Counted from the first letter of the stretch, positions 50,501 through 53,500 are shown. The stretch: DNA of 64,000 bases from Escherichia coli (GCF_003018235.1 NZ_CP027437.1), one strand, 5' to 3'. A program made the numbers.

Positions 50501-53500
50501 CTTTTAACTGACAGCAGGAGAGGCATAATGAAAACGCTGCTGATTATTGACGCTAATCTCGGTCAGGCACGCGCCTATATGGCGAAGACCCTGCTGGGCG
50601 CGGCGGCGCGAAAAGCAAAACTGGAAATCATCGACAATCCGAACGACGCTGAAATGGCGATTGTTCTCGGTGATTCCATCCAGAACGACAGCGCGCTGAA
50701 CGGTAAAAATGTCTGGCTGGGCGATATTTCCCGGGCAGTTGCGCACCCTGAGCTGTTCCTGAGTGAAGCCAAAGGCCATGCGAAACCTTACACTGCGCCG
50801 GTCGCTGCGACAGCACCGGTTGCCGCCAGCGGTCCGAAACGCGTAGTTGCGGTGACTGCTTGCCCGACTGGCGTAGCACACACCTTTATGGCGGCTGAAG
50901 CCATTGAAACCGAAGCGAAAAAACGTGGCTGGTGGGTGAAAGTTGAAACCCGTGGTTCTGTTGGCGCGGGTAATGCAATCACTCCCGAAGAAGTCGCAGC
51001 AGCGGATCTGGTGATTGTGGCGGCAGATATCGAAGTGGATCTGGCGAAATTTGCTGGTAAACCGATGTATCGTACCTCTACCGGTCTGGCGCTGAAGAAA
51101 ACCGCGCAGGAACTGGATAAAGCGGTTGCTGAAGCAACGCCGTATGAACCGGCGGGCAAAACTCAAACAGCGACCACTGAAGGTAAGAAAGAGAGTGCAG
51201 GCGCTTACCGTCACTTGCTGACGGGCGTCTCTTACATGCTGCCGATGGTCGTTGCAGGTGGTCTGTGTATCGCGCTTTCTTTTGCTTTTGGTATCGAAGC
51301 GTTTAAAGAGCCGGGTACGTTGGCTGCGGCGCTGATGCAGATTGGTGGTGGTTCAGCCTTTGCGTTGATGGTGCCGGTACTGGCAGGTTATATTGCCTTT
51401 TCCATTGCCGATCGTCCGGGTCTCACGCCGGGTCTGATTGGCGGTATGCTGGCGGTCAGCACCGGTTCTGGCTTCATTGGCGGTATTATTGCGGGCTTCC
51501 TGGCTGGTTACATTGCGAAGTTAATCAGTACGCAATTGAAACTGCCGCAGAGTATGGAGGCGCTGAAACCGATCCTGATCATTCCGCTAATTTCCAGTCT
51601 GGTGGTCGGTCTGGCGATGATCTACCTGATCGGTAAACCGGTTGCTGGCATTCTCGAAGGGTTGACTCACTGGCTGCAGACCATGGGGACTGCGAATGCG
51701 GTTCTGCTGGGGGCGATCCTCGGTGGCATGATGTGTACTGACATGGGCGGTCCGGTAAACAAAGCAGCGTACGCGTTCGGTGTGGGTCTGCTGAGTACTC
51801 AAACCTATGGCCCGATGGCGGCGATTATGGCGGCAGGTATGGTGCCACCGCTGGCAATGGGCCTGGCAACAATGGTGGCGCGTCGCAAATTTGACAAAGC
51901 GCAGCAGGAAGGGGGCAAAGCCGCTCTGGTACTGGGACTGTGCTTTATTTCGGAAGGTGCAATTCCGTTTGCTGCTCGTGATCCGATGCGTGTGCTGCCG
52001 TGCTGTATCGTGGGTGGGGCGCTGACTGGCGCAATCTCAATGGCGATTGGTGCGAAACTGATGGCACCGCACGGTGGTCTGTTTGTTCTGCTGATCCCTG
52101 GCGCGATTACGCCGGTATTGGGTTACCTGGTAGCCATTATTGCCGGTACGCTGGTGGCGGGTCTGGCCTATGCCTTCCTGAAACGTCCGGAAGTGGACGC
52201 AGTAGCGAAAGCAGCGTAATAAAAGGTGTGTTACAGGGCAGAAATTTCCTGCCCTGTAACATTTGATGAGCGCAAAGGGAATGACCGGTTTGTGAATGTA
52301 ATTTTATGAATTTAAATGGTTTTATCTTTCAGTAGAAACCTGAAACGTTCATCAAACACTAAGGTTATTTCCTCAAGGGCAGATTAATTTCTGCCCTTTT
52401 TTATTGTTCCTGTTCTGTGCATCCCGTCACAAATTCCCCCTTTTTATAATTCAGGTATTTAATCGCGTTTTGTGAGCCTGCTCAAATCTGCCCATTTTGC
52501 CTCTCTGGCGGTAATTTACTTTACGTAAAACATGCATACTATGAGCACATGTTTAAATATGAACACATGTTTAAACCGTCTTTGCAGTATCAATATTCTT
52601 GTGGATTGACAGGGTTGGTAATTTTTTACCAGAGGACGTGCTATGCGCGAAAAGGATTATGTCGTAATTATAGGTTCGGCGAATATTGATGTCGCCGGAT
52701 ATTCACATGAATCATTAAATTATGCGGATTCAAATCCAGGTAAAATAAAATTTACGCCTGGTGGAGTAGGGCGAAATATTGCACAAAACCTAGCGTTGCT
52801 GGGTAACAAAGCCTGGCTACTGAGCGCAGTAGGCAGTGATTTTTATGGTCAATCGCTGCTAACGCAAACCAATCAATCTGGCGTTTATGTCGATAAATGC
52901 CTGATTGTGCCGGGAGAAAATACGTCAAGCTATTTATCATTACTCGATAATACCGGTGAAATGCTGGTTGCTATAAATGACATGAATATTAGCAACGCTA
53001 TTACAGCTGAATATCTCGCACAGCACCGTGAATTTATTCAGAGGGCAAAGGTCATTGTCGCGGACTGTAATATCAGTGAAGAGGCACTGGCATGGATTCT
53101 GGATAATGCCGCCAACGTACCCGTATTTGTCGATCCTGTTTCCGCGTGGAAATGTGTCAAAGTGCGCGCCCGTCTAAATCAAATCCACACTCTCAAGCCA
53201 AACCGCCTTGAAGCGGAAACCCTGAGTGGGATTGCGCTGTCAGGGCGTGAAGATGTGGCAAAAGTTGCTGCCTGGTTCCATCAACATGGCCTGAACCGAC
53301 TGGTATTGAGCATGGGCGGCGATGGCGTTTATTACAGCGATATCAGCGGTGAAAGTGGCTGGTCTGCGCCGATTAAAACCAATGTTATTAATGTTACCGG
53401 AGCGGGCGATGCCATGATGGCGGGGCTTGCTTCGTGTTGGGTAGACGGAATGCCGTTTGCCGAATCTGTTCGTTTCGCACAGGGATGTTCGTCAATGGCG

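Follow-up and report, generated by a model that had tools for sequence, protein, structure and literature searches.

The stretch of DNA analyzed here (the window; 64,000 nucleotides (nt), one strand) comes from Escherichia coli (GCF_003018235.1, NZ_CP027437.1) and carries the pseudouridine operon psuKGT. The subject of this analysis is the region upstream of psuK, where two repeated elements lie next to a promoter. The gene order in the window, fruBKA (48443-52219), psuK, psuG, psuT, yeiL (minus strand), rihB, nupX, and yeiI (minus strand), is the E. coli order, and the repeat region is identical in sequence to that of K-12 MG1655. The features discussed below are the following.

52416-52431, no strand: distal CRP-like site TGTGCATCCCGTCACA, near -125, one mismatch to TGTGA-N6-TCACA, a predicted site
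52471-52486, no strand: proximal CRP-like site TGTGAGCCTGCTCAAA, TGTGA-N6-TCATA, with constant spacing to box 1 in each of the approximately 50 loci
52515-52520, plus strand: -35 hexamer TTTACT, assigned from conservation and an adaptive single-nucleotide polymorphism (SNP)
52517, plus strand: the adaptive SNP, psuK/fruA 2257444 A to C (NC_000913.2), which is T to G on the psuK strand, mapped via NC_000913.3 position 2259422
52528-52534, plus strand: AAACATG, previously described as an upstream half-site, within the promoter spacer
52537-52542, plus strand: -10 hexamer TACTAT, 16 nt after the -35 hexamer; TAnnAT is conserved at this position across genera
52541-52576, plus strand: two tandem 18-mers, as first described and confirmed here
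52544-52555, no strand: box 1 (O1), GAGCACATGTTT, palindrome RAACA-YR-TGTTY, abutting the -10 hexamer and spanning the putative transcription start
52562-52573, no strand: box 2 (O2), GAACACATGTTT, 12-bp palindrome, 18 bp centre to centre from box 1
52617-52630, plus strand: small hairpin GGTAA-TTTT-TTACC, directly 5' of the Shine-Dalgarno sequence AGAGGA (52631-36)
52643-53584, plus strand: psuK, pseudouridine kinase without a helix-turn-helix (HTH) domain
53572-54510, plus strand: psuG, pseudouridine-5'-phosphate glycosidase
54604-55854, plus strand: psuT, nucleoside transporter, broken by a TAA at 54952-54954
59097-60185, minus strand: yeiI, an HTH_24 winged helix (residues 1-48) followed by a PfkB domain that resembles PsuK most closely; the protein proposed to bind both boxes

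The initial annotation of this region described two tandem 18-mers with an inverted half-site upstream of them, and suggested that the array may be the binding site of the operon's regulator, with YeiI and YeiL as candidates. The two repeats, ATGAGCACATGTTTAAAT (52541-52558) and ATGAACACATGTTTAAAC (52559-52576), were found exactly as placed, with two mismatches (16/18 identical), and the array lies 67-116 nt upstream of the psuK ATG at 52643, in agreement with the distance first given. When up to three mismatches are allowed, the degenerate 18-mer has only these two matches in the window. Shuffling gives a mean of 0.14 matches, and none of 100 shuffles reached two; the repeats are real and not a product of chance. 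The half-site AAACATG is also present, but at 52528-52534 and not at 52527-52533, an error of one position. Its description as an inverted half-site of the array is less secure, and its role is uncertain: it sits in the spacer between the -35 and -10 hexamers, 16 bp before box 1 instead of 18, and its conservation across genera is moderate and limited to the AAACA part. Inside each 18-mer there is a 12-bp palindrome, AACA-NN-TGTT, which had gone unnoticed and which is conserved beyond Escherichia.

The 140 nt upstream of psuK were compared among 56 psuK loci, with one genome per species. In three of the loci (L005, L051, and L053) the neighbouring genes are interrupted by many frameshift-like breaks, and for this reason an apparent deletion of box 1 in L005 was not used as evidence. 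From the -35 hexamer through box 2, the Enterobacteriaceae loci align without gaps (51 sequences in the 140-nt frame). The module has the order CRP-like TGTGA-N6-TCATA, TTTACT(TT), 16 nt, TAnnAT, the 12-mer RAACAYRTGTTY, N6, and a second 12-mer. In Entomohabitans the boxes seemed to be missing, yet the whole module was found further upstream. Conservation across the Enterobacteriaceae had been named as a check on the array, and its outcome is divided. The boxes, their spacing, and their position are kept in every intact psuK locus examined, but the direct-repeat appearance of the 18-mers is found only in Escherichia. The similarity of the TAT..AAA flanks, which gives this appearance, is limited to E. 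coli and its closest clades, and E. albertii already lacks it.

At 1.79 bits per position, the -35 hexamer carries more information than any other part of the region; the values for the -10 hexamer, box 1, and box 2 are 1.37, 1.62, and 1.58 bits, compared with 0.85 bits for the spacers and 0.47 bits for the next 20 nt. Three position pairs of each box (2-11, 4-9, and 5-8) hold complementary bases in 97-100% of the 38 distinct sequences; the central YR dinucleotide, by contrast, varies and can be CA, TG, TA, or CG. Self-complementary arms around a variable centre are the signature expected of a dimeric DNA-binding protein. Since the arms are self-complementary and the flanks are variable, the conserved objects are two palindromes. 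Both boxes are invariant in E. coli, E. ruysiae, E. whittamii, and the clade strains, and natural variants within Escherichia are confined to the N6 spacer, the -10 hexamer (TATTAT in PCN033), and the flanks. Of 5,426 complete E. coli genomes, 4,213 carry an 81-nt core of the region, and in 2,749 this core is 100% identical. Over a wider range, the box cores, the 18-bp spacing, and the position relative to the -10 hexamer are kept across at least 15 genera in three orders. The pattern of the box pair has 59 matches in the 843 kb of DNA analyzed, all of them no more than 260 nt 5' of the start of psuK or HTH-psuK. The boxes thus show what is expected of operators, dyad symmetry and conservation above that of the surrounding non-coding DNA at a fixed position. 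A search for the box motif upstream of yeiL, rihB, nupX, and yeiI and elsewhere in the window gave nothing beyond chance, and this window search provides no evidence of a wider local regulon.

The conserved hexamers form a sigma-70 promoter for psuK, TTTACT and TACTAT separated by 16 nt, with 8 of 12 matches to the consensus. A consensus scan with a cut-off of 9/12 left it unflagged at this score, and the promoter was located instead by conservation and the adaptive SNP. According to three independent bodies of literature, the intergenic change A to C at 2257444, between psuK and fruA, recurs: it arose in E. coli evolving in the mouse gut (PMC7518454, PMC9509342, PMC6731689), and the same allele appeared in stationary-phase cultures kept for 1,200 days (PMC7858067). 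An engineered strain under laboratory evolution also gained a transversion in the psuK promoter (PMC10733421). The coordinate 2257444 belongs to the NC_000913.2 numbering, because version 3 would place it inside psuG. Given the differences between the two versions, the offset from NC_000913.2 to NC_000913.3 at the psuK locus is taken to be +1978; this value fits both the difference in total length (1977) and the plus-strand A at the mapped base. The SNP converts TTTACT into TTGACT and raises the consensus matches from 8 to 9 of 12; judged by its sequence, it is a textbook -35 up-mutation. Its location at 52517 is evidence for the assigned promoter and is in line with the conserved hexamers. 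Counted from the -10 hexamer, transcription would start at about 52549 (52547-52551), and with this start box 1 would extend from about -6 to +6 and box 2 from about +13 to +24.

Class I CRP promoters carry TGTGA-N6-TCACA centred near -61.5, -71.5, and so on. The proximal CRP-like site has one mismatch to this pattern, and its centre would be at -70.5 or -71.5, according to where transcription actually starts, which makes it a candidate class I site. The distal CRP-like site lies approximately 55 bp upstream of the proximal one; it is common to Escherichia and occurs in a perfect form at the same distance in Brenneria, but it is not general. The psuKGT promoter is weak and probably assisted by CRP.

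A link between the boxes and a particular regulator comes from other families. Homologues of YeiI (41-57% identity) are encoded in Yersinia, Serratia, Xenorhabdus, Pasteurella, Shewanella, Aliivibrio, and Ferrimonas. In these seven genera the homologue is the first gene of a psuG operon, usually together with a nucleoside transporter, and the locus has no separate psuK. Pairs of AAACA-NN-TGTTT spaced 18 or 19 bp apart are found upstream of the homologue operon in six of the seven genera. The pair is AAACAAAAGTTG-N6-AAACAGGTGTTG-ATT-ATG in Pasteurella, AGACACATGTTT-N6-AAACAAGTGTCC-ATT-ATG in Yersinia, and AAACAAATGTTT-N7-AAACAAAAGTTT-ATG in Ferrimonas. No regulator domain other than the HTH-kinase is shared by the loci outside the Enterobacteriaceae. 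The kinase part of the HTH-kinases of Yersinia, Serratia, and Pasteurella has 57-60% identity to PsuK, compared with only 38% between PsuK and E. coli YeiI. The called starts of the Yersinia and Serratia HTH-kinases (372 amino acids; L059 6001-6030 and L065 4001-4030) fall inside box 1; translation almost certainly begins 10 codons further downstream (MTSREKQIL…), directly behind box 2.

In the Enterobacteriaceae, yeiI is linked to psuKGT in every locus of sufficient extent. Most genera have psuK-psuG-psuT followed by a convergent yeiI, as does Brenneria, where the flanking genes are different. The genes yeiL-rihB-nupX form a variable insert between psuT and yeiI and are missing from most of the loci that keep the boxes. 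The insert (55922-59041 in the window) is present in E. coli, some Citrobacter, Kluyvera, Yokenella, and Phytobacter, and lies upstream of psuK in one Leclercia. Because yeiL-rihB-nupX occurs only in some lineages, the boxes persist in loci without yeiL. Of the two candidate regulators proposed at the outset, YeiI is therefore strongly favoured, by synteny and by the occurrence of the same boxes in front of the YeiI-homologue operons of other families, and YeiL is disfavoured.

The HTH domain of YeiI is 84-100% identical to that of E. coli among the homologues compared, while the identity of the whole protein ranges from 56% to 98% (70-85% where the locus holds the full gene). The recognition region ISRSxVAxHIMxL..KGxIKGKGYIL is conserved throughout the homologues. 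The best family match of the PfkB domain after its own family is pseudouridine kinase, and residues 55-359 match the E. coli pseudouridine kinase PsuK (PUKI) at E = 2.8e-67. The AlphaFold model of YeiI (predicted local distance difference test score, pLDDT, 90.6) superposes on PUKI with a template modelling (TM) score of 0.95 and a root-mean-square deviation (rmsd) of 1.9 Å. The residues that contact pseudouridine in E. coli PUKI (N14, D16, S30, Y97, N112, N143, K170, K185, and D256) are all invariant in YeiI; these include Ser30, Asn143, and Lys170, which define the pseudouridine kinase family, and the catalytic Asp256. The GAGD motif is replaced by GADD in all 15 Enterobacteriaceae-type YeiI proteins checked. 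Sequence and fold searches of the PDB for a solved HTH+PfkB protein returned none, all matches covering the kinase domain only. YeiI was still listed as uncharacterised in papers of 2022 and 2025.

We consider it probable that the two boxes are an operator pair on a weak, probably CRP-assisted psuKGT promoter, recognized by YeiI acting as a pseudouridine-responsive repressor. The proposal that the array is the binding site of the operon's regulator is in this respect supported by the comparison of genomes, because the array is conserved in sequence, spacing, and position; its units, though, are two 12-bp palindromes and not tandem 18-mers. In the mechanism that we infer, one YeiI dimer would occupy each box and block RNA polymerase, and binding of pseudouridine to the kinase-like domain would release the DNA. 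The PUKI dimer changes its quaternary structure when Ser30 contacts N1 of pseudouridine (PMC9061257). A similar rearrangement in YeiI would offer a plausible route from the ligand to a movement of the two N-terminal winged-helix (wHTH) domains.

With slightly less confidence, we lean towards a broader proposal, in which the YeiI family consists of pseudouridine-sensing kinase-repressors. The ancestral HTH-PsuK would have been both a kinase and a repressor of its own operon through paired AACA-NN-TGTT boxes, and a duplication in the Enterobacteriaceae would have split the two roles. After the duplication, PsuK would have lost the HTH domain and remained conservative. YeiI would have kept a nearly invariant HTH domain, while its fast-evolving kinase part diverged (GAGD to GADD) into what is probably a catalytically altered sensor.

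Other explanations of the boxes were considered. They might be the operator of another transcription factor, either YeiL, a member of the CRP/FNR family, or an unlinked regulator. YeiL is a neighbouring regulator in E. coli with no assigned target, proteins of its family bind palindromes, and the link between YeiI and the DNA is a comparative one. However, yeiL is missing from most loci with boxes (E. albertii, Klebsiella, Enterobacter, Leclercia, most Citrobacter, and Brenneria) and from all seven loci outside the Enterobacteriaceae, a statement that refers to the locus and not to the rest of those genomes, and no box is found near yeiL, rihB, or nupX. CRP/FNR family sites typically have a 5-N4/N6-5 layout, and the boxes, at 5-N2-5, are unlike it. 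The pattern AACA-NN-TGTT, with its variable centre and its poorly conserved spacer between the boxes, does not appear to match the known operator consensuses of DeoR, CytR, PurR, KdgR, NsrR, FabR, and LexA. A different regulator is therefore unlikely. It is unlikely to a similar degree that YeiI binds the boxes as an activator or a dual regulator. The intrinsic weakness of the promoter (8/12) would suit activation, as would the lack of yeiI loss-of-function alleles in the consulted portions of studies in which higher psuK expression was selected. The geometry argues in the opposite direction: the boxes abut the -10 hexamer, would cover about -6 to +24, and reach the start codon in Yersinia, Serratia, Pasteurella, and Ferrimonas, and sites on or downstream of the transcription start are typical of repression and incompatible with the known geometries of activation.

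The selected feature could also be a stem-loop formed by the 5' end of the psuK mRNA, with an effect on stability or translation, instead of a DNA site. The boxes lie within the putative 5' untranslated region (UTR), where E. coli can form an 11-bp hairpin (52551-76) and the whole leader folds at -26.5 kcal/mol (z = -2.0), and in other genera the two boxes are mostly inverted relative to each other. The central dinucleotides of the two boxes pair in 67 of 76 cases, compared with 63.8 in shuffles, but this excess is not significant, as 115 of 2000 shuffles reached it. A stem between the boxes does not need self-complementary arms, and yet those arms are what is conserved. Moreover, 29 of 38 sequences have an A.C mismatch between position 3 of box 1 and position 10 of box 2, the register of the E. 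coli hairpin differs from that of other genera, and Rfam gave no covariance-model match. An RNA element is thus rather improbable. A functionless tandem duplication produced by replication slippage would account for the extended identity of the 18-mers, including the TAT and AAA flanks, which is limited to Escherichia; as an explanation of the boxes it is very improbable, being contradicted by the retention of the 12-bp cores, the 18-bp spacing, and the register to the -10 hexamer in genera of three orders.

Several observations weigh against YeiI as a pseudouridine-responsive repressor of psuKGT. A literature search yielded no binding, footprint, transcription-start, or reporter data for the psuK promoter, and no paper on a regulator or operator of psuK, on the anatomy of the promoter, or on the role of YeiI or YeiL; RegulonDB, EcoCyc, and RegPrecise were outside its scope. 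A simple repressor is a large target for knock-out, so mutations in yeiI would be expected, but the evolution experiments that repeatedly knock out repressors such as frlR, srlR, dgoR, and glpR list no yeiI mutation in the portions consulted. In the same portions, the only recurrent adaptive allele at the psuK locus is the -35 SNP (PMC7518454, PMC9509342, PMC7858067). The promoter may be so weak, or so dependent on CRP, that derepression alone does not help, or pseudouridine may already act as the inducer in the gut. In addition, E. coli yeiI has no box of its own and lies 2 nt after nfo, and Xenorhabdus has the boxes only in a degenerate version. The GADD motif suggests that YeiI may handle nucleotides differently from PsuK, and the effector could be a compound other than pseudouridine.

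The proposed arrangement resembles several known systems. BirA and NadR are likewise enzymes with an N-terminal wHTH or HTH domain that repress the operon of their own pathway, with DNA binding controlled by a ligand of the catalytic domain. The single-copy HTH-PsuK of Yersinia, Pasteurella, and Shewanella, encoded by the first gene of the operon with boxes upstream, matches this layout. The YeiI family differs from these two in its PfkB ribokinase-like fold and in the catabolic, not biosynthetic, nature of the psu operon. BirA binding is activated by a product-like corepressor, whereas in the proposed YeiI system the substrate would be expected to act as inducer. The ROK repressors NagC and Mlc are also kinase-derived regulators with a wHTH domain and a paralogous true kinase in the same genome, and their palindromic operators overlap CRP-dependent catabolic and transport promoters. 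However, ROK proteins have an actin-ATPase fold and bind 23-bp AT-rich palindromes, in contrast to the PfkB fold and 12-bp boxes proposed for YeiI, and there is no sequence relationship. E. coli PsuK/PUKI (PDB 7vtd, 7vva, 7vkp) shares the kinase fold and the pseudouridine contacts with YeiI, which has in addition 54 N-terminal residues forming the winged helix, GADD for GAGD, and only 38% identity.

The nucleoside operons deo, cdd, and udp, controlled by DeoR and CytR, similarly combine an upstream CRP site with a specific operator at the core promoter. The DeoR operator is TGTTAGAA-TTCTAACA, and the CytR operator consists of TGCAA repeats. The psuK boxes differ from these in sequence; the N8 between TGTT and AACA of the adjacent boxes is not conserved, and the locus does not have the geometry of a CytR-CRP sandwich. 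The box pair is in kind an ordinary local operator pair at a catabolic promoter, while its PfkB-winged helix type of regulator belongs to neither the BirA/NadR nor the ROK family.

If the proposed model is true, a function can be assigned to the E. coli y-gene yeiI, and both the near-silence of the operon in laboratory strains and the repeated selection of a single -35 up-mutation are explained. It offers a mechanism for a highly reproducible adaptive SNP in mouse-gut colonisation and batch-culture ageing. It would also represent a case in which an enzyme-regulator fusion was split, through duplication, into a separate enzyme and sensor. In strains engineered to make pseudouridine for mRNA production, the operator-sensor pair could be used as a pseudouridine biosensor. 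The operator, the promoter, the candidate regulator, and the candidate effector are concrete and can be tested by standard assays.

Further observations concern the psuK leader and the neighbouring genes. The small hairpin in front of the Shine-Dalgarno sequence has four predicted pairs, three of them with compensatory changes in 3 of 24 sequences (the versions are GGTAA/TTACC, GGCAA/TTGCC, and CAGCA/TGCTG); its energy is weak, but it is also present in the minimum free energy (MFE) fold, and it could modulate the initiation of psuK translation. A leader block, TTAACGAACTCATT, is found approximately 30-45 nt upstream of the psuK ATG in most genera other than Escherichia, and E. coli has TCTTGTGGATTGACAGGG in its place. 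An Rfam scan of 51500-53500 gave only two sub-threshold chance matches, both outside the repeat. Two terminator-like hairpins lie 3' of fruA (52229-52261 and 52375-52398); they have a common core, GGGCAGA…TCTGCCC, and a T-run comes after the second. The intervening 113 nt are conserved in E. coli. The TAA in psuT is in frame (…LLY*IGVMG…), at a position occupied by Tyr in the paralogue NupX; psuT is therefore a pseudogene in this strain, whereas that of PCN033 is intact. psuK and its promoter are present in approximately 4,215 of the 5,426 complete E. coli genomes and absent from about 22%. The psuK of the window is at most 98.8% identical to the copy in any complete E. coli genome, which suggests that the strain belongs to an uncommon lineage.

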